15,263 nucleotides of DNA, taken from the IMG/VR virus record IMGVR_UViG_2529292726_000023, positions 1 to 15,263 of that record; one strand, 5' to 3'. The number at the start of each line of letters is the position of its first letter. Position 1 is the stretch's first letter. The position numbers and the translations under genes were made by a program. This DNA is from a virus. Its lineage: Duplodnaviria > Heunggongvirae > Uroviricota > Caudoviricetes. The notes beneath the pieces are model-generated. The model was not told the origin of the DNA. It made no database searches and saw only the letters and a list, made by a program, of their open reading frames with translations. Below, one piece after another: positions 1-13,993 of this stretch.

Positions 1-403
<403 letters not shown>

Positions 404-469
404 TAATAAGTCCTCACTATATAAAGATATTCAGTGATGAGATAAATAATCAGTTAATTAAGAACGATA

Positions 470-832
470 TTAATGACCTGCTGCGCGGAGTTTTCCGTCA
501 GGTTCACCGGCAAGAGTCAGTAATTGTCCCTGGTCTTCCTGCAGAATAGTCAGGCGACCACCGCGATTGACATACATCGGCGTTTCGGTGGTGTCTTCTT
601 CGGAAATTTTCCCGCGGTTAGTCGGGCGGACATATGAGAGTTTATGTTTGATTTTCACACGGCTCTCATCAAACGGTTCGATTTCCAGGTTGAGTGAGAC
701 CTTACCTTTGGTTTTCGTGTTCATCACACCGGAAGCGACTTCACTGAGAACTGCGCCGATTTTGGTTTCAAATACGCCGCCGTCCAGCTCCCCGATAAAT
801 GCCTGTACATCAGTACTGCGTTCGCTAGCCAT
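470..832 (-). CDS. Hypothetical phage protein, 120 aa, first gene of the leftward early operon; function unknown
   Basis: ORF track 470..1018 trimmed to the ATG at 832, which has a GAGGAG RBS 7 nt upstream (MASERSTDVQAFIGELDGG...). No family confidently recognised; not Arg-rich like an N antiterminator. Confidence 0.6.
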   Translation of the reverse strand: MASERSTDVQAFIGELDGGVFETKIGAVLSEVASGVMNTKTKGKVSLNLEIEPFDESRVKIKHKLSYVRPTNRGKISEEDTTETPMYVNRGGRLTILQEDQGQLLTLAGEPDGKLRAAGH

Positions 833-880
833 TTTGCTGCTCCTCATCATATCGACCCTGCAAGGTCGGTTGGTTTCTCC

Positions 881-969
881 ACAAAACAGAGAAGAACACC
901 TGCGGTGGCAGCCGCCCGGATGGATTGGGTTATGAGCCCGTCGTCCGGTGATGCTCTTCTCTGTTTTGT
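881..969. repeat. Perfect 15-bp inverted repeat (ACAAAACAGAGAAGA at 881-895, TCTTCTCTGTTTTGT at 955-969) with 59-nt spacer, upstream of the 470-832 gene
   Basis: Direct reading of the sequence; arms are exact reverse complements. Confidence 0.7.
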
Positions 970-1014
970 AAAAAGAGCGGTACCAGCCGGAAGCAAGTGT
1001 ACAAACTGGTACCG
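968..1014 (-). terminator. Candidate intrinsic terminator or antitermination-site hairpin on the leftward transcript
   Basis: 10-bp perfect stem GCGGTACCAG (977-986) / CTGGTACCGC (1005-1014) with 18-nt loop; on the minus strand it is followed by TCTTTTTAC, which also resembles a boxA-like CGCTCTTTTTA. Confidence 0.35.
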
Positions 1015-1460
1015 CCAAAGCAGTGGCTGTTGTGGTGACCGGTGCTGATCTCCGGCTTGCGGTTATTTCAGACTCTCACGGGCGTTTAATTGCCCCGCCG
1101 AACAGCTCTTTTCCGCAATAGCTGCAATGTCTTTCGCGCATCAGCCTGCGCATTCACCACAACGCTGAGAGCACTTAGCCAGTTACGGCACCACACTTTG
1201 TCGCGGTTCCATAAATGCCCTCATCGTTGCACCCTGGTCTCTTCCCAGGCGTCAAACCGAATCGCCACGCTGGTTAGGCGTCTTATCAGCATCATCATTG
1301 ACTTGCACATTCCGGCTACCTGGTTTGTTTGCTCGAGCAAGGAGTGGATTGTCCCCTTTAACGTCACCAGACCGCTAACGACGCATGTGCCATACGCCGT
1401 ATTACAACCAAATTTTGTTAGTACCTTGTTTGTTGGTCTGGAAAGAAAGATAAAATGAAG

Positions 1461-1498
1461 TTGCGCATTATGCAAGTGTTTTGTTGCGAGATGTGCAA
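1461..1498. promoter_or_regulatory. Putative left operator region: two operator-like 15-mers TTGCGCATTATGCAA (1461-1475) and TTGCGAGATGTGCAA (1484-1498)
   Basis: Same TTGCG-N-GCAA architecture as the 15-mer TTGCGCGTTAAGCAA at 2267-2281 in the repressor/cro intergenic region; sits immediately left of the repressor gene where OL/pL is expected in lambdoid phages. Confidence 0.4.
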
Positions 1499-1504
1499 TT
1501 TTAT

Positions 1505-1533
1505 GGGAAATGAAAAGCCACCTTTGGGTGGCT
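1505..1533 (-). terminator. Intrinsic terminator downstream of the repressor gene
   Basis: Stem AGCCACC (1516-1522) / GGTGGCT (1527-1533), loop TTTG; on the minus strand followed by TTTCATTT; lies 21 nt past the repressor stop codon. Confidence 0.55.
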
Positions 1534-1553
1534 AATTGATGAGGAGGTAAGGG

Positions 1554-2246
1554 TTAATTGTGTCGCTTAAGGGTTTGTGACTGGCTGATTAAGACCTTTC
1601 CAAAGACCATAAACCGGTGTTCATTTTCGCTGGTAATTCCCCATTCACGGTAAATCTGGTTATCAGAAATCACCAGTAGTTTGTCAGGTATCATTTGCAG
1701 TCGTTTGACATAAATTTTATCATCAAAACCAAATACATAGATACCATCTCCATCAAACTGATTGATACTGACATCAACGAAGATGAGATCTCCTGGCTCA
1801 ATGGTTGGACACATACTGTCCCCACGAACGTTGATAACTTTAATGTGATTGGCTGGTCGTCCGCCAAACATCGATACAGCATTATCAGTTCTGTATTCAA
1901 TGGCATGAATCACATCAATGACATCACCGCCCTGGATAAGGCCATTTCCCGCACTGGCACTGACATCCAGCATTTCAATACGGAATACATCCTTCACCTG
2001 CGCAACATCCTCACTAATACTGTTTTTACATACAGTATTACTTTTGAAGTCTGAGGTAAAGAGATCAGCAATATCAACACCTAAGCTCCTGGCAATATTA
2101 CTCAGGGCTTGTTCAGTGAATTGTTTCTGCTTACCTGTTTCCAGGCGCGAGATATTCGCCGCATCCACTCCTATTGCTTCAGCGAGATCGGCGATTTTCA
2201 TGTTCTTCGCCTGGCGAAGTTGTCTGACTCGATTTCCTATGTTCAT
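1554..2246 (-). CDS. CI-like prophage repressor, 230 aa: N-terminal XRE-type HTH plus C-terminal S24 (LexA-like) self-cleaving peptidase domain
   Basis: MNIGNRVRQLRQAKNMKIADLAEAIGVDAANISRLETGK HTH; C-terminal GDSMCPTIEPGDLIFVD with downstream KRLQ consistent with the Ser/Lys dyad; divergent from a Cro-like gene. Confidence 0.9.
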   Translation of the reverse strand: MNIGNRVRQLRQAKNMKIADLAEAIGVDAANISRLETGKQKQFTEQALSNIARSLGVDIADLFTSDFKSNTVCKNSISEDVAQVKDVFRIEMLDVSASAGNGLIQGGDVIDVIHAIEYRTDNAVSMFGGRPANHIKVINVRGDSMCPTIEPGDLIFVDVSINQFDGDGIYVFGFDDKIYVKRLQMIPDKLLVISDNQIYREWGITSENEHRFMVFGKVLISQSQTLKRHN

Positions 2247-2343
2247 GCGTTTATTACATTTCTTTATTGCGCGTTAAGCAAATCAACTTGCGCAAAATAT
2301 TTGCGTGAAATAACATGCTCATCACGCAATATGTGGAGGTTAT
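2247..2343. promoter_or_regulatory. Immunity switch intergenic region (OR-like operators, divergent promoters for repressor and cro)
   Basis: 97-bp gap between divergent repressor and cro genes containing TTGCGCGTTAAGCAA (2267-2281), near-palindromic CGCAAAATATTTGCG (2291-2305) and CACGCAATAT (2322-2331); GGAGG RBS before cro ATG. Confidence 0.5.
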
Positions 2344-2604
2344 ATGCAATCACCATTACGAAATGTGCGTAAGGCGCACGGGCTTACTTTGCAGCATGTT
2401 GCTGCGGGCGTTCAGGTTAATCCAGCAACGCTGAGTCGTATTGAGAGACTGGAACAAATTCCATCTATCGATCTTGCAGAGCGTCTGGCCAATTTTTTTA
2501 AGGGAGAAATCAGCGAAATGCAGATTCTCTATCCTGCACGCTTTCAATCTAGTCAAAACCGGAATGAGTTAAAACCACAGGAACAGGAGGTAAGCCGTGG
2601 GTAA
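2344..2604 (+). CDS. Cro-like HTH transcriptional regulator, 86 aa
   Basis: MQSPLRNVRKAHGLTLQHVAAGVQVNPATLSRIERLEQIPSIDLAERLANFF is a helix-turn-helix fold; position divergent from the repressor; GGAGG RBS. Confidence 0.8.
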   Translation: MQSPLRNVRKAHGLTLQHVAAGVQVNPATLSRIERLEQIPSIDLAERLANFFKGEISEMQILYPARFQSSQNRNELKPQEQEVSRG

Positions 2605-3148
2605 GCATCACTGGAAAGTGGAAAAACAACCTGAGTGGTACGTGAAAGCTATCAGAAAAACTATCGCGGCATTGCCAGGTGGTTACGCTGAAGCTGCTGA
2701 CTGGCTGGATGTAACAGAGAACGCATTATTTAACCGCCTTCGTGCCGATGGCGATCAGTTTTTTCCGTTGGGATGGGCAATGGTTTTACAGCGTGCGGCT
2801 GGTACTCACCACATTGCGGATGCTGTCGCACAGTCTGCTGGTGGGGTGTTTGTATCACTTCCTGAAATTGAGGAAGTAGAGAACGCCGATATAAACCAGC
2901 GCCTGCTGGAAGTCATCGAACAGATCGGGAGTTACTCAAAGCAGATTCGTTCGGCAATCGAAGACGGGGTAGTGGAGCCACATGAGCAGACAGCAATTAA
3001 TGATGAGTTGTATCTGTCGATTTCGAAGCTCCAGGAACATGCGGCACTGGTCTACAAAATTTTCTGCGTTCCAGAAAAGAGTGACGCCCGCGAGTGTGCA
3101 GCTCCGGGCGTCGTGGCGTTTTGTGTCTGTGGAGAAACTAACGCATGA
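2597..3148 (+). CDS. Hypothetical early regulatory protein in the CII position, 183 aa; family uncertain (possibly CII/CP76-like)
   Basis: GTG start with AGGAGG RBS 6 nt upstream, overlapping the cro stop; stop overlaps the next start (ATGA). Family assignment is from position and memory only. Confidence 0.5.
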   Translation: MGKHHWKVEKQPEWYVKAIRKTIAALPGGYAEAADWLDVTENALFNRLRADGDQFFPLGWAMVLQRAAGTHHIADAVAQSAGGVFVSLPEIEEVENADINQRLLEVIEQIGSYSKQIRSAIEDGVVEPHEQTAINDELYLSISKLQEHAALVYKIFCVPEKSDARECAAPGVVAFCVCGETNA

Positions 3149-3750
3149 ACAGTTTAACGGCAAATAACCGTTGGTCGCAACAGCTGGTGGTCCGCGTGGC
3201 TGAACACCTGTTGTTACGGCATGAATGCAGATTACCAAATCACCTGGCTGTAAGTAACCACAGAGAACTTTACCTGACTGTGGGGGGCGAGTTGTGCAGG
3301 AACTTAACCGCTGGTTTCGTGACGGAAGAGGACTTTATGTTCATGTTATTCGTTGGGAGCCAGAAACACAGCGCGTTATCTATCTTCGCAAAGACTACCC
3401 GCATGAGTGCTTTAGTCCTTTGTGGAAATTCAGGCGTGATTTTGTTGAGTGTGAAGGACCACCAGCACATTGATTCTGCCATTCCGGGACGTTACACTGT
3501 TCAGGCACCTTATAAAGCGGGTGCCGGGCGTGGAAACCCGGAATTCACCAAAGCGCACAACCGCGCTCTTGCGGTTTTTTTGTGTCATGAGCAGCATTAC
3601 GCCCAAATTATGGTGGGGCGTGCAGGGCCAACTTCGGTTGGGCCGGGTTCTTTGGTGACCGGTATTTCCACCCCTGTACGTCTCACCACCAATAAGGTCG
3701 TGGAAAGCCTTGGTGGTGAGTTATTTAAAATCACCAAAGAGGCTGCCATC
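3145..3750 (+). other. Ambiguous coding region upstream of rha, in frame with it (no stop between 3145 and 4296); possible N-terminal extension, fusion or decayed gene
   Basis: ATG at 3145 is translationally coupled (ATGA) to the upstream gene, but the Rha domain has its own RBS and start at 3751. An alternative-frame ORF at 3294-3473 has a GGGGGG RBS 6 nt before its GTG. Confidence 0.35.
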
Positions 3751-4296
3751 ATGGCTACGATCCCAACCCTCACTCAACCTGAAATTGCCATCGTTGATGG
3801 TCAGGCTGTTACTTCATCCCTGGCTGTTGCCAACTTCTTCTCCAAACGTCATGACGATGTACTGAAAAAGATCCGCACGCTTGAATGCTCCGCATCATTC
3901 ACTGCCCGCAATTTTTCGGTGAGTGATTACACCGATTGCACAGGCCGCAAACTACCTTGCTATCAAATAACCCGCGACGGCTTTGCGTTTCTTGCTATGG
4001 GTTTCACGGGTAAACGTGCTGCCCAGTTCAAAGAGGCATACATCAATGCCTTTAACCAGATGGAGAAACAGCTTTCAAGGCCCGCTGTACCGAGCGACGT
4101 TGCACATAACGCCAGCGTTCTCTGTTCCTACATTTCATCAATTCATCAGGTCTGGCTGCAGCAGCTTTATCCTATGTTGGCAAAAGCCGAATCTCCGCTG
4201 GCTGTTAGCTTATATGACTATATTAATGATGCTTCGGCGCTGGCCTGCCTCATAAATTTGTCGCTGAACCCTTCAGAGGTAAGGGGGCGCAAATGA
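3751..4296 (+). CDS. Rha family phage regulatory protein, 181 aa
   Basis: MATIPTLTQPEIAIVDGQAVTSSLAVANFFSKRHDDVLKKIRTL matches the Rha domain N-terminal signature; AAAGAGG RBS 8 nt upstream of ATG 3751. May instead be the C-terminal part of a 383-aa ORF starting at 3145. Confidence 0.8.
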   Translation: MATIPTLTQPEIAIVDGQAVTSSLAVANFFSKRHDDVLKKIRTLECSASFTARNFSVSDYTDCTGRKLPCYQITRDGFAFLAMGFTGKRAAQFKEAYINAFNQMEKQLSRPAVPSDVAHNASVLCSYISSIHQVWLQQLYPMLAKAESPLAVSLYDYINDASALACLINLSLNPSEVRGRK

Positions 4297-4517
4297 TCCG
4301 GAATATTTTCAAACGTTTTACCAATCAGACTTTCCGTTGTCCTCGTCCGGGTCAGTGGTACACCACGCCTGCAGGGCATGTTCTACGTGTTAGCCTGGTT
4401 GACCGTGAATGTCAGAAGGTGGTTTGTGAACCGCTGGGCCGTAATTACCGCGTCAGTATGCCGCTTATAGCCTTTCGCTCCAGAAAAAACATGAAGCATC
4501 TCGGAGGTGCAGCATGA
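4293..4517 (+). CDS. Hypothetical small protein, 74 aa
   Basis: ATGA overlap with the upstream stop and with the downstream start (translational coupling on both sides); GGTAAGGGGG RBS. No family recognised. Confidence 0.5.
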   Translation: MIRNIFKRFTNQTFRCPRPGQWYTTPAGHVLRVSLVDRECQKVVCEPLGRNYRVSMPLIAFRSRKNMKHLGGAA

Positions 4518-5332
4518 GTATGGAGCTGATGGTTAAAGCGATGAAAATTCGAGTGGGTAATCCATTGCGAAAACTGGTTCTGATCAAGCTGGCTGATAAT
4601 GCCAGCGATCAGGGTGAGTGCTGGCCCAGCTACCAGCATATTGCTGACCAGTGCGAGATTAGCAAACGTTCTGTGATGAATCATATTGCGGCCCTTTGTG
4701 AGTCCGGGCTGGTAAAAAAAGTCACCCGGAAAGGTGAAAAAGGTAACTCAAGTAATATCTATCTCCTTCATCTGGATGGTGCAGGAGATTCACTAGGGGG
4801 TAGTGCAAATAATTCACTATCTGGTGCAGCAAATTCACCAGGTAGTGCAGGAGTTGCACCAGGGGGTAGTGCAGGAGATTCACCCAGAACCAGTCACTCT
4901 TTTGAACCAGTCAAAGAACCAGTCAATGAACCAATAGCTGTTGGTGCATCAGTTGATGAGTCCGTGCGAGTTCGTTCAAACCGACCGGAATATTCTCCGG
5001 AGTTTGAGCAGGCATGGCTGGCATATCCCAAACGTGCTGGTGGCAATTCAAAATCTGCAGCCTTCAAAGCCTGGAAAGCCCGTTTGAATGAGGGGGTAAA
5101 CCCCGAAACCATGCTGGAAGGTGTGAAACGCTATGCGGGCTGGGTATCTGCAATGGGTAACAGCGGCACACAATTTGTGAAACAGGCTGTCACGTTCTTT
5201 GGTCCGGATCGTCATTTCGAAGAATCCTGGGAAGTTCCTGCGGTATCTGCAGCCAGACGTGAGGACCCGTACTTCAAATCCAGTTACGACAACGTGGACT
5301 ACAGCCAGATCCCGGCAGGATTCAGGGGGTGA
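4514..5332 (+). CDS. O-like replication initiator candidate, 272 aa: N-terminal winged-HTH DNA-binding domain, Gly/Ser/Ala-rich linker, conserved C-terminal domain
   Basis: N-terminus LRKLVLIKLADNASDQGECWPSYQHIADQCEISKRSVMNHIAALCESGLVKK resembles phage replication-protein HTH domains; the linker coincides with iteron-like DNA repeats, as in lambda O/ori. Confidence 0.6.
   Translation: MSMELMVKAMKIRVGNPLRKLVLIKLADNASDQGECWPSYQHIADQCEISKRSVMNHIAALCESGLVKKVTRKGEKGNSSNIYLLHLDGAGDSLGGSANNSLSGAANSPGSAGVAPGGSAGDSPRTSHSFEPVKEPVNEPIAVGASVDESVRVRSNRPEYSPEFEQAWLAYPKRAGGNSKSAAFKAWKARLNEGVNPETMLEGVKRYAGWVSAMGNSGTQFVKQAVTFFGPDRHFEESWEVPAVSAARREDPYFKSSYDNVDYSQIPAGFRG
4778..4935. repeat. Iteron-like direct repeats inside the replication gene (candidate origin of replication)
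   Basis: Repeated units GGTAGTGCA (x3), GTGCAGGAGATTCAC (x2), ATTCAC (x4), then AACCAGTCA (x3) within about 160 bp. Confidence 0.5.
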
Positions 5333-5334
5333 TC

Positions 5335-5823
5335 ATGAGTCTTTTGAATGACGTTCAGAAATTCATTGAAGCCCATCCGGGGTGTACTTCCGGAGACATT
5401 GCGGATGCTTTTGCAGGTTACTCACGGCAGCGCGTACTGCAGTCAGCAAGCAAGTTACGTCAGAGTGGGCGTGTGGCTCACCGTTGTGAAGGGGATACAC
5501 GCAGACATTTCCCGCGCCTGACTGAGAGAGCGCAGGAGCCGGAACCACAACCAGTTCGTGAAACCAGACCTGTGCGCAATTTCTATGTCGGCACTAACGA
5601 TCCCCGGGGGATTTTGTGCCTGACCCGCCAGGCTGAAGAACTGGAGTCAAGAGGCTTATACCGTCGTGCTGCAACCGTGTGGATGGCGGCATTCCGTGAA
5701 AGCCACTCCCAGCCAGAACGAAACAATTTTCTGGCGCGTCGTGAGCGGTGCTTACGGAAAAGCAGCAAGCGCGCTGCATCGGGTGAAGAGTGGTATCTGT
5801 CAGGGAATTACGTGGGGGCTTAA
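5335..5823 (+). CDS. PerC-like transcriptional regulator domain protein, about 162 aa
   Basis: C-terminal QAEELESRGLYRRAATVWMAAF...LARRERCL resembles the PerC/Pch motif; ATG 5335 has an AGGGGG RBS. The GTG at 5329 in the ORF track is less likely. Confidence 0.5.
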   Translation: MSLLNDVQKFIEAHPGCTSGDIADAFAGYSRQRVLQSASKLRQSGRVAHRCEGDTRRHFPRLTERAQEPEPQPVRETRPVRNFYVGTNDPRGILCLTRQAEELESRGLYRRAATVWMAAFRESHSQPERNNFLARRERCLRKSSKRAASGEEWYLSGNYVGA

Positions 5824-6476
5824 TGAGTAATAAATATTGCCAGGCGCTGGTGGAACTGCGGAACAAACCAGCCCATGAACTGAAGGACGTGGGCGATCAG
5901 TGGCGCACGCCGGACAACATTTTCTGGGGAATTAACACCCTGTTTGGCCCGTTTGTTCTGGATCTGTTCACTGACGGTGATAACGCCAAATGTGCTGCGT
6001 ATTACACGGCGGAAGACAACGCGCTGGCGCATGACTGGTCAGAACGTCTTGCGGAGCTTAAAGGTGCTGCCTTTGGTAATCCCCCATACAGCCGCGCCAG
6101 TCAGCATGAGGGGCAATACATCACCGGCATGCGTTACATCATGAAGCATGCCAGTGCCATGCGTGATAAGGGCGGGCGCTATGTTTTCCTGATCAAAGCT
6201 GCCACCAGCGAAGTTTGGTGGCCGGAAGATGCAGACCATATTGCTTTTATTCGCGGGCGTATTGGTTTTGAACTGCCTGCCTGGTTTATCCCGAAGGATG
6301 AGAAGCAGGTGCCGACAGGAGCGTTCTTCGCTGGTGCTATTGCTGTTTTCGACAAGACCTGGAAGGGACCGGCAATCAGCTACATCGGGCGCGATGAACT
6401 TGAGGCATGTGGTGAGGCCTTTCTGGCGCAGGTTCGCCAGCAGGCGGAAAAACTGGTCAGGGAGATGGCGGCATGA
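5823..6476 (+). CDS. Phage-type DNA N6-adenine methyltransferase, 217 aa
   Basis: MSNKYCQALVELRNKPAHELKDVGDQWRTPDNIFWGI... with WRTP and NPPY (FGNPPYSRA) motifs typical of the phage Dam family; start overlaps the upstream stop (TAATG). Confidence 0.85.
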   Translation: MSNKYCQALVELRNKPAHELKDVGDQWRTPDNIFWGINTLFGPFVLDLFTDGDNAKCAAYYTAEDNALAHDWSERLAELKGAAFGNPPYSRASQHEGQYITGMRYIMKHASAMRDKGGRYVFLIKAATSEVWWPEDADHIAFIRGRIGFELPAWFIPKDEKQVPTGAFFAGAIAVFDKTWKGPAISYIGRDELEACGEAFLAQVRQQAEKLVREMAA

Positions 6477-6799
6477 CGACGTTAACTCAATGCCAGCAGC
6501 AGGGGCTGGATATGCTGATTTCTTACCAGAAAGAACGTGGCTTCCCGCCAACCAATCAGGAGGTGGCAACCATGCTGGGATACCGTTCAGTGAATGCAGC
6601 GGTGGAGCATCTTCGCGCACTGGAGAAAAAAGGCGTCATCACGATAAAGCGTGGCGTGGCCCGGGGGATCACGCTTCATACCGCAGTGAAGGACGACGAC
6701 AGCGAAGCGGTCGGGATTATCCGCTCACTGCTTGCCGGTGAGGAAAACGCAAGGCTGCGTGCAACCCACTGGTTACATGAGAGGGGCCTGAAAGCATGA
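6473..6799 (+). CDS. LexA N-terminal DNA-binding-domain-like protein, 108 aa, with no peptidase domain
   Basis: LTQCQQQGLDMLISYQKERGFPPTNQEVATMLGYRSVNAAVEHLRALEKKGVITIKRGVARGITL parallels the LexA winged-helix domain; protein ends about 40 aa later without an S24 domain. Confidence 0.75.
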   Translation: MTTLTQCQQQGLDMLISYQKERGFPPTNQEVATMLGYRSVNAAVEHLRALEKKGVITIKRGVARGITLHTAVKDDDSEAVGIIRSLLAGEENARLRATHWLHERGLKA

Positions 6800-7185
6800 A
6801 GCTGATCCTGCCTTTTCCGCCCAGCGTGAACACGTACTGGCGACACCCCAACAAAGGGGCGTTTGCAGGTAAGAGCCTGATAAGCGCGGCGGGGCGCAAA
6901 TTCCAGAGCGCGGCGTGCGCAGCAATAGTTGAGCAGTTACGTCGTCTACCAAAACCAACGTCGGCACCTGCTTCAGTGGAGATCGTGTTGTTTCCTCCGG
7001 ATAACCGGATCCGCGATCTGGACAACTATAACAAGGCGCTGTTTGACGCGTTGACCCACGCGGGTGTGTGGGAAGACGACAGACAGGTGAAAAGAATGCT
7101 GGTGGAGTGGGGACCGGTTATCCCGAAAGGGAAGGTCGAGATCACCATCAGTAAGTACGAGAAAACGGCGGGTGCAGCCGCCTGA
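6796..7185 (+). CDS. rusA: RusA Holliday-junction resolvase, 129 aa
   Basis: MKLILPFPPSVNTYWRH...RDLDNYNKALFDALTHAGVWEDDRQV matches RusA conserved motifs; typical nin-region position. Confidence 0.9.
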   Translation: MKLILPFPPSVNTYWRHPNKGAFAGKSLISAAGRKFQSAACAAIVEQLRRLPKPTSAPASVEIVLFPPDNRIRDLDNYNKALFDALTHAGVWEDDRQVKRMLVEWGPVIPKGKVEITISKYEKTAGAAA

Positions 7186-7204
7186 TCAAGAGGAGAAACG
7201 AAGT

Positions 7205-8002
7205 ATGAATAATCTGATGGTCATTGATGGTATTGAAGTTCGTCGTGATGCTTATGGTCGTTACAGCCTGAACGATCTGCACAGGGCTGCCGGTTCTCTG
7301 GATAAGCATAAGCCTGCATTCTGGCTCCGCAATGAGCAAACTGAACGTTTAATAAGCGAGTTGCAGATTTGCAACTCGGTCAATATAGAGCCAGTTAACG
7401 TTATTCGTGGCGGAAATAACCAGGGGACGTATGTCTGCAAAGAACTGGTGTATGCCTATGCAATGTGGATAAGCCCGTCATTCCATCTGAAGGTGATCCG
7501 TACTTTCGACATGGTAACCAGCGCACCGGAAAAATTATCCGGACAGGCTGCTGACAAGATGCAGGCTGGTGTGATTCTGCTGGACTTTATGCGCCGGGAA
7601 TTAAACCTGTCTAACTCTTCAGTGCTTGGGGCCTGTCAGAAACTCCAGGAGGCTGTTGGCTTACCGAATCTGGCACCGCGCTATGCCATTGATGCTCCTG
7701 CTGACGCGCCTGATGGCTCAAGCCGCCCCACGCTGTCACTGAGTGCACTGCTGAAGCAGTATGGTATCCGCCTGACAGCTAATCAGGCATATCACCAGAT
7801 GGCGAAGCTGGGGATCGTTGAACAACGTGAACGATACAGCCGCACTGCGATTAACAACATCAAAAAATTCTGGTCGCTGACGGCGAAAGGCTGCATGTTC
7901 GGCAAGAACATCACCAGTCCCGCAAATCCGCGCGAGACGCAGCCGCATTTCTTCGAATCCCGGTTCCCTGAGCTGTTAAAGCTGCTCGATACCGTTCATT
8001 GA
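7205..8002 (+). CDS. KilA-N domain protein, 265 aa
   Basis: N-terminus MNNLMVIDGIEVRRDAYGRYSLNDLHRAAG...KPAFWLRNEQTERLISEL...GGNNQGTYVCKELVYAYAMWISPSFHLKVIRTFD is a KilA-N fold; GAGGAGAAA RBS before ATG 7205. Confidence 0.8.
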   Translation: MNNLMVIDGIEVRRDAYGRYSLNDLHRAAGSLDKHKPAFWLRNEQTERLISELQICNSVNIEPVNVIRGGNNQGTYVCKELVYAYAMWISPSFHLKVIRTFDMVTSAPEKLSGQAADKMQAGVILLDFMRRELNLSNSSVLGACQKLQEAVGLPNLAPRYAIDAPADAPDGSSRPTLSLSALLKQYGIRLTANQAYHQMAKLGIVEQRERYSRTAINNIKKFWSLTAKGCMFGKNITSPANPRETQPHFFESRFPELLKLLDTVH

Positions 8003-8003
8003 G

Positions 8004-8999
8004 GTGACCGTGAGAGCGCTACTGACCCCTGAAATTGCCCCGCGTATGGGGATCGTATTGTTCAGGCCAGGTTCAGAGCTGATGCCCCTGTTTATGCAGG
8101 GGCGTGTCCTGCTGGAGCCTGAGCCGGAACGTTATTCATCTTTCGCCAGTGGTGCCGTTCCGGCTGCATCACAACCGCTGGCGGATGATCCTGCCGTTTG
8201 GGCCGTGTTCCGCAATGAGGCAGTGATTCGTCGTGCTGGTGGAGTGGAATGTCTTGAACGCTGGTTACTTCGTGAAAAAGGTTGCCAGTGGCCTCATTCC
8301 GACTGGCACAGCGAGAACATGACCACAATGCGACACACGCCGGGCGCAATCCGTCTGTGCTGGCACTGCGATAACCAGCTGCGCGATCAGTTCACGGAAC
8401 GGCTGGAATCAATGGCAACGGATAACTGTACCCGCTGGGTGTTGTCTGTTGTGCGTCGGGATCTCGGTTTTGATGACAGTCACGTTGTGACAATGCCGGA
8501 ACTGTGCTGGTGGCTGATTCGTAATGACCTGGCGGATGCCTTACCGGAAAGTGCAGCCCGTAAGGCACTGAGATTACCGAAGCCTGTTGTGCCGTCTGTC
8601 ACCCGGGAAAGTGACCTTGTGCCTTCGGTTCCTGCCACCAGCATCATCCAGGATAAAGCGAAAAAGGTGCTGGCGCTGAAAGTGGATCCGGAGTCGCCGG
8701 AGTCTTTTATGTTACGCCCAAAACGTCGCCGCTGGGTTAATGAAAAGTACACGCGCTGGGTTAAGACACAGCCGTGTGCATGTTGTGGAAAGCCTGCTGA
8801 TGATCCCCACCACCTGATAGGTCACGGTCAGGGAGGAATGGGAACAAAAGCGCATGACCTTTTTGTGTTGCCTTTGTGCAGAAAGCATCACGACGAGCTG
8901 CATGCGGATACCGTGGCATTTGAAGAGAAGTATGGCTCCCAGCTGGAGCTGATATTTCGTTTTATCGATCGTGCGCTGGCAATTGGCGTGCTGGCCTGA
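8004..8999 (+). CDS. DUF968 protein (YdfU-like), about 330 aa, with C-terminal HNH-like Cys/His motif
   Basis: C-terminal [43 protein letters not shown]; sits just upstream of Q as DUF968 genes do in Qin-like prophages. True start may be GTG 8010 (GAGG RBS). Confidence 0.75.
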
Positions 9000-9016
9000 T
9001 TTTGTGGAGAAAGTTG

Positions 9017-9382
9017 ATGCGTGATATTCAAATGGTTCTTGAACGTTGGGGGGCATGGGTGGCAAATAATCACGAGGATGTCACCTGGTCGTCTATTGCT
9101 GCAGGATTTAAAGGACTAATCCCTTCAAAAGTAAAATCCCGCCCGCAATGTTGTGACGATGACGCGATGATCATTTGTGGGTGCATGGCTCGCCTGAAAA
9201 AGAACAACAGCGATTTGCACGATTTATTAGTGGATTATTATGTAGGTGGTATGACGTTTATGGCGCTTGCCCGTAAACATGGGCGTTCTGATTGCTGGGT
9301 TGGGCGTTTATTGCAAAAGGCTGAAGGTGTAGTTGATGGCATGTTAATGATGTTAGAAATTGAGCTAGAGATGGATCGTTAG
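9017..9382 (+). CDS. Late-gene antiterminator Q (QuuD-like family), 121 aa
   Basis: [76 protein letters not shown] matches the Q antiterminator family of DLP12/phage-82 type as I remember it; GGAG RBS. Confidence 0.85.
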
Positions 9383-9423
9383 AAGACCTCTTATTGAGGG
9401 GGTAATTGAATCAGTTTAATGTG

Positions 9424-9458
9424 TGGGGAGTCGATTTATTCTCCCCATTTATTTAATT
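9424..9458 (+). terminator. Hairpin plus A/T-rich tract downstream of Q
   Basis: Stem GGGGAG (9424-9429) / CTCCCC (9440-9445), 10-nt loop, followed by ATTTATTTAATTAATTT; a possible promoter (TTGAGG 9393-9398, 17 nt, TAATGT 9416-9421) lies just upstream. Confidence 0.35.
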
Positions 9459-9465
9459 AATTTAC

Positions 9466-9912
9466 TTAAGGTTTTAATTCATCAAGACGTTGTTGGATAG
9501 TGTTTTTGCTTGCGTTGTCTGTTATAGCCATTTGTTGTACTTGCCCCATTGCCATTTGAGTTTCCATCCACATATCGGCCCACACTTTTGTATCGTTATT
9601 AACTTGAGCGATAGTAAATCTGACTTTTGATACCGGGGTTGTTGAATAGGCATTTCCGATTAACATTTGTCCAAAAACAGCAGAGCCGCCTTCCAGTTCT
9701 TTACCACATATAACACTGCTGTTATCCGCGTTGTAAATTATCAACCCTCTACTATTGCAGTAATTCACAAGGGCATCTTTGACTTTATCTTTTGTCGTAT
9801 TTTGATAAACCCCCTCAGGTTTTCCTGATTGAGTTTTCTTTATCAATGGTACGGAAGAAGTACAACCTGAAATGATAGTTGCGCTAAGTAATAGTACAGT
9901 CATTTTATTCAT
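9466..9912 (-). CDS. Lipoprotein of unknown function, 148 aa, AT-rich moron between Q and the tRNA array
   Basis: N-terminus MNKMTVLLLSATIISGCTSS is a signal peptide with lipobox (ISGC); opposite strand to flanking late genes; local GC visibly lower than the neighbours. Confidence 0.7.
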   Translation of the reverse strand: MNKMTVLLLSATIISGCTSSVPLIKKTQSGKPEGVYQNTTKDKVKDALVNYCNSRGLIIYNADNSSVICGKELEGGSAVFGQMLIGNAYSTTPVSKVRFTIAQVNNDTKVWADMWMETQMAMGQVQQMAITDNASKNTIQQRLDELKP

Positions 9913-10041
9913 GTTTCTTATCCATTGTTAAGGGTATACCCACACAATTATTTTTATTGGAGATGAATAATCAACCGTTTACAATCGTAAAAAATCAAAT
10001 ATGCTGTTAAGAGTGGTTACTTCGCCACACAACTTAACCCC

Positions 10042-10061
10042 GCCGCTGAGCGGTTTTTTTT
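10042..10061 (+). terminator. Intrinsic terminator (short GC stem plus T8)
   Basis: GCCGC-TGA-GCGG hairpin at 10042-10053 followed by TTTTTTTT at 10054-10061. Confidence 0.55.
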
Positions 10062-10142
10062 GTACCTGTAAACTTGGTGCAGTACAGTAAACACGCTGGT
10101 GGACAAGTGAAAAACAGCATTTAATCAGGCCTTCTGAAGATA

Positions 10143-10171
10143 TTGCAGTATTAATTCTGTAACGTTATTAT
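10143..10171 (+). promoter_or_regulatory. Candidate sigma70 promoter for the tRNA array
   Basis: -35 TTGCAG (10143-10148), 17-nt spacer, -10 TATTAT (10166-10171), about 9 nt before the first tRNA. Confidence 0.45.
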
Positions 10172-10180
10172 TCTGTGCGC

Positions 10181-10256
10181 GGCCCTTTAGCTCAGTGGTG
10201 AGAGCGAGCGACTCATAATCGCCAGGTCGCTGGTTCAAATCCAGCAAGGGCCACCA
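10181..10256 (+). tRNA. tRNA with CAU anticodon, most like tRNA-Ile2 (lysidine type; a plain scan would call it Met)
   Basis: 76-nt cloverleaf GGCCCTTTAGCTCAGTGGTGAGAGCG...CTCATAA...GGTTCAAATCCAGCAAGGGCCACCA; anticodon CAT at 10214-10216; encoded CCA; resembles enterobacterial ileX/ileZ. Confidence 0.85.
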
Positions 10257-10257
10257 A

Positions 10258-10334
10258 CTGCCACTAGCTCATCAGGAAAGAGCGTCAACCCTTTAAGTTG
10301 AGAGTGCGAGGTTCGAGTCCCCGGTGGCGGTCCA
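10258..10334 (+). tRNA. tRNA-like gene with noncanonical anticodon loop CCTTTAA (position 33 is C); anticodon reads UUU (Lys) by standard numbering; identity uncertain, possibly a pseudo-tRNA
   Basis: Acceptor CTGCCAC/GTGGCGG (one G-U pair), D-stem GCTC/GAGC, anticodon stem TCAAC/GTTGA, T-loop TTCGAGT with one A-C mismatch in the T-stem, encoded CCA. Confidence 0.5.
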
Positions 10335-10336
10335 GT

Positions 10337-10412
<76 letters not shown>

Positions 10413-10415
10413 TGT

Positions 10416-10490
<75 letters not shown>

Positions 10491-10496
10491 GTTAGA

Positions 10497-10542
10497 GTCT
10501 TTCAGTCTGCGATGATGGGAAATCCCGGAGTGACTGAAAGAC
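10497..10542. repeat. Perfect 11-bp inverted repeat GTCTTTCAGTC / GACTGAAAGAC with 24-nt spacer
   Basis: Direct reading; immediately downstream of the tRNA array. Confidence 0.7.
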
Positions 10543-10550
10543 GTTTAAGT

Positions 10551-10620
10551 TATGAATGATCGCTTTTTTTGCAAAATTGCTGTGCAGAAATACTAACCTT
10601 CGGGCAGGCGATCATTCATA
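10551..10620. repeat. Perfect 13-bp inverted repeat TATGAATGATCGC / GCGATCATTCATA with 44-nt spacer
   Basis: Direct reading; spacer contains a T7 run and a possible promoter (TTGCAA ... TACTAA). Confidence 0.7.
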
Positions 10621-10696
10621 AGCACTCTGCTTTTATTCCGATTAACTGTGGGTGGTTTGTTGGATAGAGTGCTTCCCTTACTGTATATATCGTTTC

Positions 10697-10720
10697 GCCC
10701 GCTTTTGCGGGTTTTTCTTT
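10697..10720 (+). terminator. Strong intrinsic terminator just upstream of the lysis cassette (candidate tR'-type terminator read through by Q-modified polymerase)
   Basis: GCCCGC-TTTT-GCGGG hairpin (10697-10711) followed by TTTTTCTTTT. Confidence 0.65.
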
Positions 10721-10781
10721 TCAAATCCCTTTCATTTCTCAGTGTAAAACTACGCCATCCGTTATTTGCGGAGGTGAGGCT

Positions 10782-10997
10782 ATGAAATCCATGGACAAAA
10801 TTTCAACGGGCATTGCCTACGGCACCTCCGCAGGCAGTGCTGGCTACTGGTTTTTACAGTGGCTTGATCAGGTCAGTCCGTCACAGTGGGCTGCGATTGG
10901 TGTACTGGGGAGTCTGGTTCTGGGCTTCCTGACTTATCTGACAAATCTGTACTTCAAAATAAGAGAAGATAAGCGTAAGGCTGCACGGGGAGAGTAA
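10782..10997 (+). CDS. Phage-21-type class II holin (pinholin) with dual-start motif: 71-aa antiholin from ATG 10782 and 68-aa holin from ATG 10791
   Basis: [71 protein letters not shown] is near-identical in pattern to phage 21 S21 / DLP12 EssD as I remember them; GGAGGTGAGG RBS. Confidence 0.9.
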
Positions 10998-11001
10998 TTC
11001 A

Positions 11002-11346
11002 ATGACACAAAAATATGAACTGATTGTGAAAGGGATCCGCAATTTTGAGAATAAAGTTACGGTAACTTTAGCGTTACGGGACAAAAAACGCTTTGACGGT
11101 GAAATTTTAGACCTGGACATCTCGCTGGACCGTGTTGAAGGTGCCGCGCTGGAGTTTTATGAGGCAGCAGCCAGAAGGAGCATCAGACAGGTCTTCCTGG
11201 ATGTTGCTGCCGGGTTATGTGAAGGGGATGAGCAGTCACCGGAAAAGCGCCCCATAATTTTAGAGGCGCAGGGTGTGTGGATAACCTACAAAGGAAAACT
11301 GCCGGGAAGAATTACTGGTTCACTGAAGACTCCGCCGAAATGGTAA
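11002..11346 (+). CDS. Hypothetical protein, 114 aa, between holin and endolysin (same position as Qin YdfR); function unknown
   Basis: ATG 11002 with GGGGAGAG RBS, 4 nt after the holin stop; product MTQKYELIVKGIRNFENKVTVTLALRDKKRFDGEILDLD...; 3' end overlaps the convergent gene by 35 bp. Confidence 0.6.
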   Translation: MTQKYELIVKGIRNFENKVTVTLALRDKKRFDGEILDLDISLDRVEGAALEFYEAAARRSIRQVFLDVAAGLCEGDEQSPEKRPIILEAQGVWITYKGKLPGRITGSLKTPPKW

Positions 11347-11584
11347 TTTCACCAGCATATTTTTCTTCCAGTAATACCGCCAGCCACTTGAAAGAATTTT
11401 GTTGTTGCTGGGACCATTTGGGGTTGAGTGATTCAAGCTGGAGCGATGCCAGTGTTGGTTGCATTTGTTCCTTGGGAATTGAGAATGCCAGATATGAAAA
11501 TGCGACAGTAAGGGCATTTACATCATCCCGAAGCTTGGAAATGCAGTCGAGCAACTCCTGTAGAGAAATGGTGCTATTGTCCAT
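11312..11584 (-). CDS. Hypothetical small protein, 90 aa, antisense to the lysis operon; one hydrophobic segment; function unknown
   Basis: ATG at 11584 on the minus strand with GAGAGGA RBS 6 nt upstream; product MDNSTISLQELLDCISKLRDDVNALTVAFSYLAFSIPKEQ...; candidate promoter TTGAAT (11624-11629) / TACAAT (11599-11604). Confidence 0.55.
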   Translation of the reverse strand: MDNSTISLQELLDCISKLRDDVNALTVAFSYLAFSIPKEQMQPTLASLQLESLNPKWSQQQQNSFKWLAVLLEEKYAGEITISAESSVNQ

Positions 11585-11689
11585 AAACAATCCTCTCTAT
11601 TGTATTTAACTATTCCTTGCCTGATTCAACAGGCCGGGACAGATAAACATATCCAGGGTTCAGAAACCGATAAATCCTGATAAATATCC

Positions 11690-12223
11690 ATGAGCGCAAA
11701 AATCAAATACGGCCTGTCAGCTGCTGTTCTGGCGCTGATTGCTGCAGGCGCGTCTGCTCCTCAAATACTTGACCAGTTTCTGGATGAAAAAGAGGGTAAC
11801 CACACTACGGCATACCGCGATGGTTCCGGTATATGGACCATCTGTCGTGGTGCCACAATGGTGGATGGTAAGCCCGTCATACCGGGAATGAAGCTGTCGA
11901 AGGAAAAATGCGACCAGGTTAACGCTATTGAACGTGATAAGGCGCTGGCATGGGTGGAGCGCAATATTAAAGTACCACTGACCGAACCACAGAAAGCGGG
12001 TATAGCGTCATTTTGTCCCTATAACATTGGCCCCGGTAAGTGTTTCCCGTCGACGTTTTATAAGCGGCTGAATGCCGGTGATCGTAAGAGTGCATACGAG
12101 GCGATTCGCTGGTGGATAAAAGATGGTGGGCGCGATTGCCGCATACGTTCAAATAACTGCTATGGACAGGTTATTCGTCGTGACCAGGAAAGCGCATTAG
12201 CCTGTTGGGGGATAGATCAGTGA
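11690..12223 (+). CDS. SAR endolysin (T4-lysozyme-like muramidase with N-terminal signal-anchor-release domain), 177 aa
   Basis: N-terminal [18 protein letters not shown] hydrophobic SAR segment, then E...D...T lysozyme motif region ([23 protein letters not shown]); follows a pinholin as in phage 21. Confidence 0.9.
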
Positions 12224-12687
12224 GCAGAGTCGCCGCGATTATTTATGCTCTGGTTATCTGCATCATCGTCTGCCTGTCGTGGGCGGTCAATCATTGCCGT
12301 GATAACGCCATCGCCTACAAAGAACAGCGTGATAAAAAAGTCAGTGAGCTGAAGCAGGCGACCGCCACCATTACTGACATGCAGCAACGCCAGCGTGCTG
12401 CTGATGTACTCGATGCTAAATACACGAAGGAGTTGGCTGATGCGAAAGCTGAAAATGATGCTCTTCGGCGCAAGCTTGATAATGGTGGTCGGGTGCTCGT
12501 CAAAGGAAAATGCTCTGTGCCATCCTCAGCCGAAACCTCCAGCGCCTCCGGCATGGGCAATGATGCCACCGTCGAACTCTCTCCAGTTGCTGGACGAAAC
12601 GTTCTCGGTATCCGGGACGGAATCATCAGAGACCAGACAGCACTGAGAACGCTTCAGGAATATATCAGGACGCAATGCCTTCGATGA
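12220..12687 (+). CDS. Rz inner-membrane spanin, about 155 aa
   Basis: GTG 12220 overlaps the endolysin stop (GTGA); N-terminal [22 protein letters not shown] then charged coiled-coil region; contains Rz1 in the +1 frame. Confidence 0.85.
12440..12646 (+). CDS. Rz1 outer-membrane lipoprotein spanin, 68 aa, embedded in Rz
   Basis: [39 protein letters not shown]: signal peptide, lipobox VVGC, proline-rich; AAGGAG RBS 7 nt upstream. Confidence 0.85.
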
Positions 12688-12861
12688 TAGCGATAATTTT
12701 ACTCATCATCCTTCACATCTGGCTCTGTAGACAGGGTGGTGATCACTTCTGGAGTGAATCCAGATTAAACATCTCATTGCTGATGCTTGAAGTTGAGCAT
12801 CTGGCGCGCGGTAAGGGGCTGCGTTGAAATAAGAGCCAGTCATTACAAATACCAGGATTTA

Positions 12862-12887
12862 GCCTCGTATTCGCGGGGCTTTTTATT
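12862..12887 (+). terminator. Intrinsic terminator candidate downstream of the lysis genes
   Basis: GCCTCG-TATTCG-CGGGGC hairpin (one G-U pair) followed by TTTTTATT. Confidence 0.5.
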
Positions 12888-12944
12888 GCCATTACAAAAG
12901 CCACTCCCTACAGAGTGGCTTTGATAATGGCTTATACCCTACAC

Positions 12945-12970
12945 GGGATAACTTAACTGATATCCCTTTT
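12945..12970 (+). terminator. Second hairpin plus T-run
   Basis: GGGATA-N10-TATCCC followed by TTTT. Confidence 0.4.
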
Positions 12971-13312
12971 AACGGATAAAGGTATTCAAGCCTGACACAT
13001 CATGCGCTGTATCGTCGCCGTATTCCCGTATTAACAGAGACCGTAGCCCGACGGGGAACTCCTTCTGCGAGAGTGTGCGGGAATAATCAAAAACGATGCA
13101 CACCGGGTTTTTACCGCGTTTATGGTTCGCGGGTTTGTCCCTCATGCTCGCCAGTCCTGTGCGGGGGTGGAAGAAACAGGATACTCACACAGATTCTTGT
13201 GGGCACGATGCTATTCCTTTCTGGATTATCCCGATGCCATTCATGCAAGGCGCTGTATCAGACGTTCGTCATGGCTGTCAGGCTGACGGGTCCTCCCGGT
13301 GGGGTGGCCTGC

Positions 13313-13333
13313 CACGGGGCGGGAGCGTCGCGG
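13313..13333. other. Candidate cohesive-end site (cosN-like) upstream of the terminase genes
   Basis: ACGGGGCGGGAGCGTCGCGG resembles the lambda cos region ACGGGGCGGCGACCTCGCGGG as I recall it, followed by an AT-rich stretch before the small terminase gene. Confidence 0.45.
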
Positions 13334-13501
13334 AAAAAGGCTAGTTTTTGCATTTTTATCGGCCACCATCATCTTTGCATCTTATTGATTATTAATGTTA
13401 TTTGTTTTTTGTATGTCGAATTGAGTGTTTTTTGTTCGACATCGAACGCGTTTTCTTAAAGTTGTTCGCACGATGCATGTTTAAAGCTCTCCGGAGGAAA
13501 T

Positions 13502-13993
13502 ATGGATCATGAGTTGAAAAACCTGGTGCTGAATATTAATCAACTGGCGGCTTTATCTGGTCTGCACCGCCAGACTGTCGTGGCAAGACTGAAAAACATT
13601 CGTCCCGCTGGTGGACATGACAAACTCAAGCTATACCGGTTGACCGATATTCTGACTGAATTTATGGGGTTACCACCGCCGGTTGCTGAGGGCGAAATGG
13701 ATCCACATGAACGCAAAGCCTGGTATCAGTCTGAACGTGAGCGTCTTAAGTTCGAACAGGAAACGGCACAACTCATTCCGGCCAGTGATGTCAGACGGGA
13801 GTTTGCCATCTGGGCAAAAGCGGTCGTGCAGGTGCTGGAGACATTACCGGATATTCTGGAACGTGACTGCGGCCTGCAGCCTGTCGCTGTGAGCCGTGTT
13901 CAGTCCATTATTGATGATCTGCGCGATCAGATAGCCCTGCGGGTGACCGAAGCAGGTGCGGATGATGAGGAGGAATTACAGCAGGAGGAGTAA
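13502..13993 (+). CDS. Terminase small subunit (Nu1-like), 163 aa
   Basis: N-terminal HTH-like LNINQLAALSGLHRQTVVARLKNI, acidic C-terminus; directly precedes the large terminase with TAATG overlap; GGAGG RBS. Confidence 0.8.
   Translation: MDHELKNLVLNINQLAALSGLHRQTVVARLKNIRPAGGHDKLKLYRLTDILTEFMGLPPPVAEGEMDPHERKAWYQSERERLKFEQETAQLIPASDVRREFAIWAKAVVQVLETLPDILERDCGLQPVAVSRVQSIIDDLRDQIALRVTEAGADDEEELQQEE

Follow-up and report, generated by a model that had tools for sequence, protein, structure and literature searches.

Replication origins inside phage initiator genes

In phage lambda, the replication origin is placed inside O, the gene of its own initiator, and is composed of direct repeats with dyad symmetry (iterons) lying about two helical turns apart, an arrangement also found in gene 18 of P22 and in phi80 and 82. 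These repeats occupy the linker between the N-terminal winged helix of O and its C-terminal partner-binding domain, a more conserved segment adjoins them, and the gene is located in the pR operon after cII. It has long been known that the sequence of the iterons changes with the N-terminal domain of O. This layout of repeats, linker, adjoining segment and gene position, together with the covariation, is shared by a locus found in a caudoviricete DNA of 15,263 nucleotides (nt) (IMG/VR record IMGVR_UViG_2529292726_000023, positions 1 to 15,263; hereafter, the window), covering early-right and late genes of a lambdoid prophage, as seen from Pfam and PHROG scans of its larger open reading frames (ORFs) and from an Rfam scan. 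The locus is a replication initiator gene coding for 272 amino acids (aa) at positions 4514-5332 (+ strand), and the region 4729-4940, inside the disordered linker of this initiator, is most probably the replication origin of this SfV/mEp460-type prophage.

Other described systems are related to this locus in different ways. In Shiga toxin (Stx) phages, the iterons studied in P27 and 933W belong to lambda-type O/iteron systems and not to the HTH_36 family discussed here (Kozlowska et al. 2020, PMC7466680). A recent study (Zheng et al. 2025, PMC12315714) recorded replication modules of the O-only class in 34 of 314 lambdoid phages; according to its authors, none of these has been studied and the way in which they replicate "is not yet understood". 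The model phage LLS, which is O-only, presents many Chi sites and a growth enhanced by RecBCD, and was placed in a "no Rec module, high Chi" class; the same study describes no origin, iterons or tail motif for the O-only class, and mEp460_4F5 is cited in it only as the closest relative of the LLS cI and Cro (PMC12315714). The survey of Fagerlund et al. (2022, PMC8951638) defines the Eru types by two genes beside cI and states that, outside the lambda type, nothing is known of their replication proteins. A further comparison group is formed by the DnaD/DnaB_2-type organisers, such as Bacillus DnaD, SPP1 G38P/G39P and the lactococcal phage Rep. A literature search found no paper on the iterons, the origin or the 38-nt element (described below) of this HTH_36 initiator family.

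A probable iteron array in the linker of an HTH_36 initiator

The 272-aa protein matched Pfam HTH_36 (PF13730) over residues 17-67 with 44.1 bits (cut-off 25), and the PHROG family phrog_270, named "replication initiation protein", with an E-value of 1.8e-88. It had no match to Pfam Phage_rep_O (PF04492) at E <= 0.01, and no NCBIfam model was found for it. A search of PDB sequences with the whole initiator returned chance matches only (E >= 0.087), and Foldseek with the full-length model retrieved only generic winged-helix proteins, including the N-domain of DnaD (2v79). By sequence comparison, the initiator belongs to HTH_36, and it is neither a Phage_rep_O protein like lambda O, nor a DnaT, nor demonstrably a DnaD. 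This would be, in function, a lambda-type origin whose initiator comes from a different family.

In the AlphaFold model, built on 106 sequences, the N-terminal residues 1-88 (4514-4777, + strand) form a predicted winged-helix DNA-binding domain with a predicted local distance difference test score (pLDDT) of 91-98, in which helices were modelled at residues 3-11, 17-29, 40-47 and 51-64 and strands at 67-73 and 79-85. The putative recognition helix, ISKRSVMNHIAAL, corresponds to residues ~49-64 (nt 4658-4705). Residues 90-155 were modelled as a disordered linker (pLDDT ~50), which is followed by a helical C-terminal domain (residues ~157-245; 4982-5248, + strand), confidently modelled at residues ~160-240. 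Pfam offers no model for this domain, a portable one that occurs on several kinds of phage initiator, and the segment that follows it, including the extreme C-terminal tail, is again disordered.

A sequence-only reading of this DNA had listed a cluster of short direct repeats within the linker of the HTH replication protein, likening it to lambda ori inside O. The listed repeats were all found in place, namely GGTAGTGCA three times (4799, 4840, 4865), GTGCAGGAGATTCAC twice (4779, 4869), ATTCAC four times and AACCAGTCA three times, and Tandem Repeats Finder returned periods of 21, 24 and 12. Two arrays were distinguished. The first one comprises five 15-nt dyad units of the form GTGCA-N5-TTCAC/TGCAC at 4779-4883, with spacings of 24, 21, 21 and 24 nt: iteron 1 at 4779-4793 (GTGCAGGAGATTCAC), iteron 2 at 4803-4817 (GTGCAAATAATTCAC), iteron 3 at 4824-4838 (GTGCAGCAAATTCAC), iteron 4 at 4845-4859 (GTGCAGGAGTTGCAC, i.e., GTGCA-GGAGT-TGCAC, whose perfect 5-nt inverted arms match on both strands) and iteron 5 at 4869-4883 (GTGCAGGAGATTCAC). 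The second array comprises three exact copies of GAACCAGTCA at 4887-4925. Thus, the units measure 15 bp (5+5+5), in contrast to the 19-bp iterons of lambda.

This clustering exceeds what is expected by chance. When one mismatch was allowed, the 15-mer matched nine times in 15.3 kb against 1.34 expected, a number that none of 200 shuffles reached, and the four exact matches and the perfectly palindromic unit all lie inside the 105 nt of 4779-4883. Moreover, GAACCAGTCA matched five times in the window against 0.88 expected, with its three exact copies inside 39 nt. In the complete 37-kb genome of SfV, exact copies of the 15-mer are confined to the homologous initiator gene. The five iterons cover residues 89-124 of the initiator and the repeats as a whole residues 89-137, and since AlphaFold gives a disordered stretch at 90-155 between two confident domains, the repeats fall exactly in the inter-domain linker, as had been proposed. 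A reading of the repeats as RNA or promoter signals was dropped, as the DnaA-box search and the sigma-70 promoter and Rfam scans were empty at the repeats.

Conservation of the DNA site and covariation with the recognition helix

About 80 related loci were gathered from Enterobacterales, Pseudomonas, Marinomonas, Shewanella, Aeromonas, Xenorhabdus and others, to which two mosaic relatives from metagenomes and phage Phi24B were added. Their comparison bears directly on whether the repeats could have arisen only from slippage in the coding sequence of a Gly/Ser/Ala linker of low complexity, devoid of any role in cis. The encoded stretch is indeed disordered, and the copy number differs between strains, as in any tandem repeat: the protein occurs in variants of 242, 250, 272, 286, 294 and 302 aa, with array steps of 21, 24 or 66 nt. 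However, such polymorphism is also as in iteron arrays, and for this reason it was counted toward the iteron reading.

In 22 loci whose recognition helix carries SKRSVMNH, 109 sites were compared, and their arms were found to be fixed (G100 T99 G100 C81/A17 A100 ... T100 T52/G47 C100 A99 C99), while the five-base spacer was free, whatever the codon position. Codon phase 1 accounts for 88 of these sites, which encode SAGDSP, SAAGSP, GAPPAP and similar peptides, and the other 21 are read in phase 0 as VQQIHQ; copies in the reverse orientation (GTGAATCTCCTGCAC) encode SESPAP. The DNA site is therefore conserved and the encoded peptide is not. The conservation of one 15-nt site in two codon phases and both orientations, with unrelated peptides as the outcome, contradicts the idea that the repeats are only a consequence of coding for a low-complexity linker, as do the dyad symmetry of each unit and the linker of locus L002, which is rich in Pro, Ser, Met, Lys and Cys and not in Gly, Ser and Ala. 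A mere by-product of the coding sequence is thus highly improbable.

It was also observed that the type of repeat tracks the recognition helix, with at least seven pairs of helix type and iteron type across the ~80 loci. Besides SKRSVMNH and its GTGCA-type sites, helix SKRSVMRH is paired with GTGACACAGAGTCAC, helices GRSTVK[SL]H and VSRSTVKSH with GGGGCAGGAGCTGCCCC, ARSTVKxH with GGGGCGGCAGATAACCC, DRSTVRKH with TGTAGGCC-type sites, CSKSAVRxH with CCCTrTGCC-N7-GGCA, and SKRSAMRH with GTGACA-N3-TGTCAC. In the mosaics P0063 and P0072, the N-domain and the repeats were exchanged together, whereas the C-terminal half is identical to that of the window protein from PRTSHSFEPV onward. Altogether, conservation at the DNA level, the internal dyads and the way in which the repeats change with the recognition helix strongly support the interpretation of the repeats as iterons in the linker of their predicted initiator, as in lambda ori inside O.

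A conserved 38-nt element adjoining the iterons

Immediately beside iteron 5 lies a conserved cis element at 4883-4920 (CCCAGAACCAGTCACTCTTTTGAACCAGTCAAAGAACC, encoding PRTSHSFEPVKEP). The first two GAACCAGTCA copies belong to this 38-nt element, CCCAGAACCAGTCACTCTTTTGAACCAGTCAAnGAACC, the exact direct repeats being located at 4887-4896, 4904-4913 and 4916-4925, with a degenerate copy at 4928 and a total span to 4937. The copy number of this 12-nt unit differs between strains, and P0018 has an additional EPVK, equivalent to 12 nt. Across 80 loci, identity of the element to the consensus was 0.93, 0.90 and 0.92 at codon positions 1, 2 and 3, respectively, compared with 0.85, 0.89 and 0.60 for the N-domain, where even the third positions of invariant residues reached only 0.66. 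The G+C content at third codon positions (GC3) of the element was 0.29-0.50, even in Pseudomonas genes with an N-domain GC3 of 0.7-0.9. The peptide RTSHSFEPV is therefore conserved because the DNA element is constrained. This element abuts the last iteron in every lineage, with all iteron types and all C-domain types. By analogy, it would correspond to the conserved right part of lambda ori, which makes it a candidate unwinding or helicase-entry site, although, in contrast to lambda, the adjoining conserved segment is only ~60% A+T. The least stable and most A+T-rich stretch of the gene is located upstream of the repeats, at 4729-4775, where the 40-mer 4734-4773 shows an A+T fraction of 0.675 and a free energy of -45.7 kcal/mol (98th percentile of the window), and it is possibly a flank of the unwinding region.

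The coupling between the array and the element is also relevant to another explanation, according to which the repeats are true initiator sites that serve autoregulation or a handcuffing-like control of copy number, with replication starting elsewhere in the phage. Plasmid iterons are known to have such control roles, and this possibility would account for the modest A+T richness beside the array and the absence of a DnaA box. Nevertheless, neither the window nor the complete SfV genome contains a second cluster of the motif, the array is coupled to the 38-nt element in every lineage, and the precedent of lambda and P22 puts the origin exactly at this place, so that a purely regulatory array is improbable.

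Two side observations concern the same pair of elements. In phage Phi24B/Min27, the "O" gene (L089:2501-3277) encodes the same N-domain family and contains three GGGGCAGGAGCTGCCC iterons and the conserved element, but a different C-domain; it is followed by a primase-helicase annotated as "P", of more than 650 aa, whose coding sequence extends past the examined stretch. The origin of this Stx phage is probably also inside its "O" gene. In Erwinia rhapontici (L029) and Pseudomonas bharatica (L036), in which the gene starts at 4001, a frame shift was found inside the iteron array, so that PESVTLLNQSKNQS is read from the conserved element and the ORF is cut short. A pseudogene, misassembly of the repeats, or repeats prone to slippage that switch the gene off could account for this.

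A replication module devoid of a helicase loader

In lambda, the partner-binding domain of O is the P-binding domain. The window lacks a P gene, and the C-terminal module of its initiator bears no relation to that domain. No homologue of DnaB, DnaC or P was revealed when all larger ORFs of the window were scanned with Pfam and PHROG, and phmmer with DnaC, DnaB and P references found nothing in the 3.5 kb downstream of the initiator, in agreement with the earlier remark that no P-like or DnaC-like loader is found nearby. That reading had left two possibilities, a direct recruitment of host DnaC or an incomplete module. The second was rejected because viable, plaque-forming phages carry the same single-gene module, with 97-98% nt identity, among them SfV, mEp460, Ayreon, 1720a-02 and many Stx2 phages, and it is also present in phage 2H10; the annotation of the complete 37-kb SfV genome shows a single replication protein, with neither helicase nor loader. 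The replication module of the window is 98% nt identical to a phage mEp460 record, which is not assumed to be the same isolate as mEp460_4F5.

With its single O-like initiator, the lack of helicase and loader, and a very strong Chi enrichment, the window resembles the O-only modules described by Zheng et al. (PMC12315714). The Chi sequence (GCTGGTGG) occurs 15 times in the window against 0.65 expected, with 12 sites on the + strand and one inside the initiator gene (5036-5043), and 22 times in SfV against 1.6 expected. Strong Chi enrichment combined with an O-only module therefore fits this phage into the LLS-type class, which is also defined by the lack of a Rec module, a feature of the early-left operon that lies outside this window.

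The C-terminal tail and the genes downstream

A search of the C-terminal half of the initiator for helicase or loader interaction domains had been proposed. No Pfam model matched it, and only the extreme tail, SQIPAGFRG (5303-5329, + strand; the last nine residues, in the disordered segment), was found to resemble a protein of this machinery, sharing 8/9 residues with SQIPPGFRG, in which DnaT of E. coli ends. The resemblance ends there, since the initiator had no match to Pfam DnaT (PF17948), against 75 bits for E. coli DnaT, and hhalign of the C-domain profile against DnaT gave a probability of 2.4%, indicating no globular relationship. Similarity to the DnaT N-domain or to its three-helix domain binding single-stranded DNA (ssDNA) is likewise absent, and DnaT is a restart factor, in contrast to the window initiator, a predicted sequence-specific origin binder. 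The designation "primosomal protein I", under which this initiator type appears in some database records, was thus rejected as a sign of homology with DnaT.

The same tail is present on other initiators with different globular domains, and the genes found directly downstream differ according to the tail. Initiators ending in ...IPxGFRG (loci L017, L048, L085, L086 and L087/88) are directly followed by a close DnaC orthologue and no DnaB. These orthologues scored 244-276 bits against E. coli DnaC in phmmer, and the one of L017, the only pair aligned directly, shared 51% identity with it. In the same way, E. coli dnaT (...IPPGFRG) is directly upstream of dnaC. The tail ...WxxxF(L/I) is followed by a lambda P-like protein; the tails ...NF, ...PAF, ...DCNW and ...AGxGQ by a distant DnaC-like gene and a DnaB-like helicase; and ...NEYL/NAFL by an uncharacterised 265-aa protein. 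The SfV-type tail ...IPAGFRG (the window, L002 and L003) has no partner gene downstream. In the Rac-type YdaU/YdaV modules, the same C-domain and GFRG tail are carried by DUF1376/YdaU-like initiators, which lie in a ydaS-ydaT context with a DnaC-like gene after them; these and the Eru modules differ from the window in that they encode their own DnaC-like loader or primase-helicase.

As a side observation, initiators with ...NEYL/NAFL or ...GWGDD tails are followed by conserved proteins of 246-268 aa with no Pfam match (L007:4893-5699, L025:4897-5637 and relatives). In the Pseudomonas and Vreelandella prophages concerned, these uncharacterised proteins are candidates for a helicase loader or another partner.

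From this distribution, the simplest reading would be that the tail specifies the loader partner and that GFRG stands for an E. coli-type DnaC, in which case the SfV-type initiators may use the DnaC-DnaB of the host. Recruitment of host DnaC-DnaB by the initiator is plausible because of its DnaT-type tail and of the strict pairing of this tail with DnaC orthologues elsewhere.

Another possibility is that one of the neighbouring phage genes encodes a new type of loader, the candidates being a 74-aa phrog_1153 protein (4293-4517), the Ash/Rha protein and the PerC-like protein. The initiator start overlaps the stop of the 74-aa gene (ATGA), coupling the two translationally, and this gene is conserved with the initiator in SfV (orf38) and other phages; moreover, other relatives have partners without Pfam models, such as the 265-aa L007-type and the 246-aa L025-type proteins. 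However, mosaics keep the initiator outside the context of the 74-aa gene, as in L003, which begins at the initiator (nt 78), and in L002, which has another upstream gene, and no ATPase or helicase-binding signatures were found in the candidate proteins by Pfam, PHROG and NCBIfam. A loader among these neighbours is therefore unlikely.

Loading could also occur by a route other than docking on DnaC. In this alternative, the tail or the C-domain would join the PriA/PriB restart primosome, or replication would be mainly recombination-dependent, starting at RecBCD/Chi D-loops with the initiator as a DnaT surrogate. The Chi enrichment of the window and SfV is favourable to it, as is the fit with the "no Rec module, high Chi" class to which the O-only LLS, with its RecBCD-enhanced growth, belongs (PMC12315714), and DnaT is known to work with PriA and PriB (PMC13377028). 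On the other hand, the tail co-occurs specifically with DnaC orthologues and not with priA/priB-like genes, the globular domains through which DnaT contacts PriA, PriB and ssDNA are absent from the initiator, and the iteron array argues for a sequence-specific theta-type initiation, at least early in infection. Such a route is considered doubtful.

A model for initiation by a single phage protein

The reading preferred here, an origin at 4729-4940 served by host DnaC and DnaB, can be formulated as follows. We infer that the N-terminal winged-helix domain binds, as dimers, to the five dyad 15-bp iterons, lying about two helical turns apart, and that this binding would build an O-some-like complex from which the origin is fired. 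This complex would then destabilise the adjoining DNA, for which the candidate is the 38-bp element at iteron 5, and possibly also the A+T-rich stretch upstream. Since no helicase or loader is encoded by the phage, the C-terminal module of the initiator would bring in the host machinery: the disordered ...SQIPAGFRG tail may dock onto host DnaC in the DnaB6-DnaC6 complex, and host DnaB would be loaded at the origin.

Some points weigh against this model. The literature search for the HTH_36 initiator family found no experimental data on binding or origin activity. The link between the tail and DnaC consists of gene neighbourhood in about four independent lineages, in addition to dnaT-dnaC. The function of the DnaT tail is undefined in the structural literature (PMC13377028; PMC4132743), and a preprimosome structure from 2026 suggests the N-domain of DnaT, and not its tail, as a possible recruiter of DnaB/DnaC (PMC13377028). 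The unwinding site is not obvious either, because the side of the element is only moderately A+T-rich (0.62 at 4900-4939, z = 1.2) and the DnaA-box search of the region found none. Finally, the element could instead persist as a recombination joint between modules.

A broader and more tentative proposal, considered possible but short of probable, joins these elements. According to it, ...IPxGFRG would be a portable motif for docking on DnaC(-DnaB), common to DnaT and several unrelated families of phage initiators, and the SfV/mEp460-type phages would fire their origin with one protein by mimicry of DnaT. The last ~10 residues of the initiators would then act as a code for the loader partner (P, DnaC, DnaC and DnaB, or other), and the 38-bp element would be a common helicase-entry site across phages of Gammaproteobacteria.

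Genetic context of the module

The initiator gene is found in a lambdoid early-right region. The cI gene (1554-2246, minus strand) is followed by cro (2344-2604) and by a CP76-type cII (2597-3148), after which come a mechanically called Ash/Rha ORF of 383 aa (3145-4296, + strand), the 74-aa gene and the initiator. This order of cI, cII and Ash/Rha resembles the Eru types with Rha/Ash proteins (Fagerlund et al. 2022, PMC8951638). The gene following the initiator (5329-5823, + strand), whose start overlaps the stop codon of the latter, matched Pfam PerC with 35.8 bits, which bears out its earlier description as a PerC-like regulator; its product also showed a weak match to the ANR family in NCBIfam. 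Prophage regulators of the PerC/Pch type are able to act on virulence loci of the host. Between the PerC-like gene and Q (9002-9382) are genes for Dam, a LexA-like repressor, RusA, KilA-N and DUF968. Four tRNA genes (10181-10487, + strand) are located between Q and the holin gene at 10782, and lysozyme and terminase genes are also present. The position of the tRNA genes, between Q and holin, is the site of stx in Stx phages; there is no toxin gene in this window.

Two RNAs were detected by Rfam within the ORF 3145-4296, namely the Hfq-binding RNA isrK (3505-3581, + strand, 67 bits) and a C4 antisense RNA (3606-3693, + strand, 83.6 bits), both of which are overlapped by a Pfam Phage_ASH match (nt 3493-3783). 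Moreover, the corresponding orf37 of SfV has only 278 aa, against the 383 aa of the mechanical ORF. The true gene in this ORF is probably a shorter Rha-type antirepressor under an RNA control similar to that of P1/P7 immI or Gifsy isrK.

Occurrence and significance

The 301-nt repeat region (4700-5000) matched in 925 of 5426 complete E. coli genomes (~17%), almost always in the chromosome and in up to four copies per genome. RefSeq labels its gene only as "helix-turn-helix domain-containing protein". The carriers of the module include the serotype-converting phage SfV and many Stx2a, Stx2c and Stx2k phages, and in Stx2 phages with this module, the output of toxin is driven by phage replication. 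According to two recent papers, how phages of these types replicate is not understood (PMC12315714; PMC8951638).

To a specialist, finding an origin within a gene like O is no surprise, and the interest of this locus lies in the loader-less variant, in the candidate partner code of the tail and in the conserved cis element. Three gains may follow from it: a concrete candidate origin, with a putative specificity code that ties the recognition helix to the iteron; a cis element of deep conservation, apparently undescribed; and a hypothesis for helicase recruitment that depends on a single peptide and is easily testable. The mechanism by which DnaT hands over to DnaB-DnaC was called unknown in the 2026 preprimosome paper (PMC13377028). 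If the tail indeed binds DnaC, the finding would bear on how this handover takes place in replication restart.

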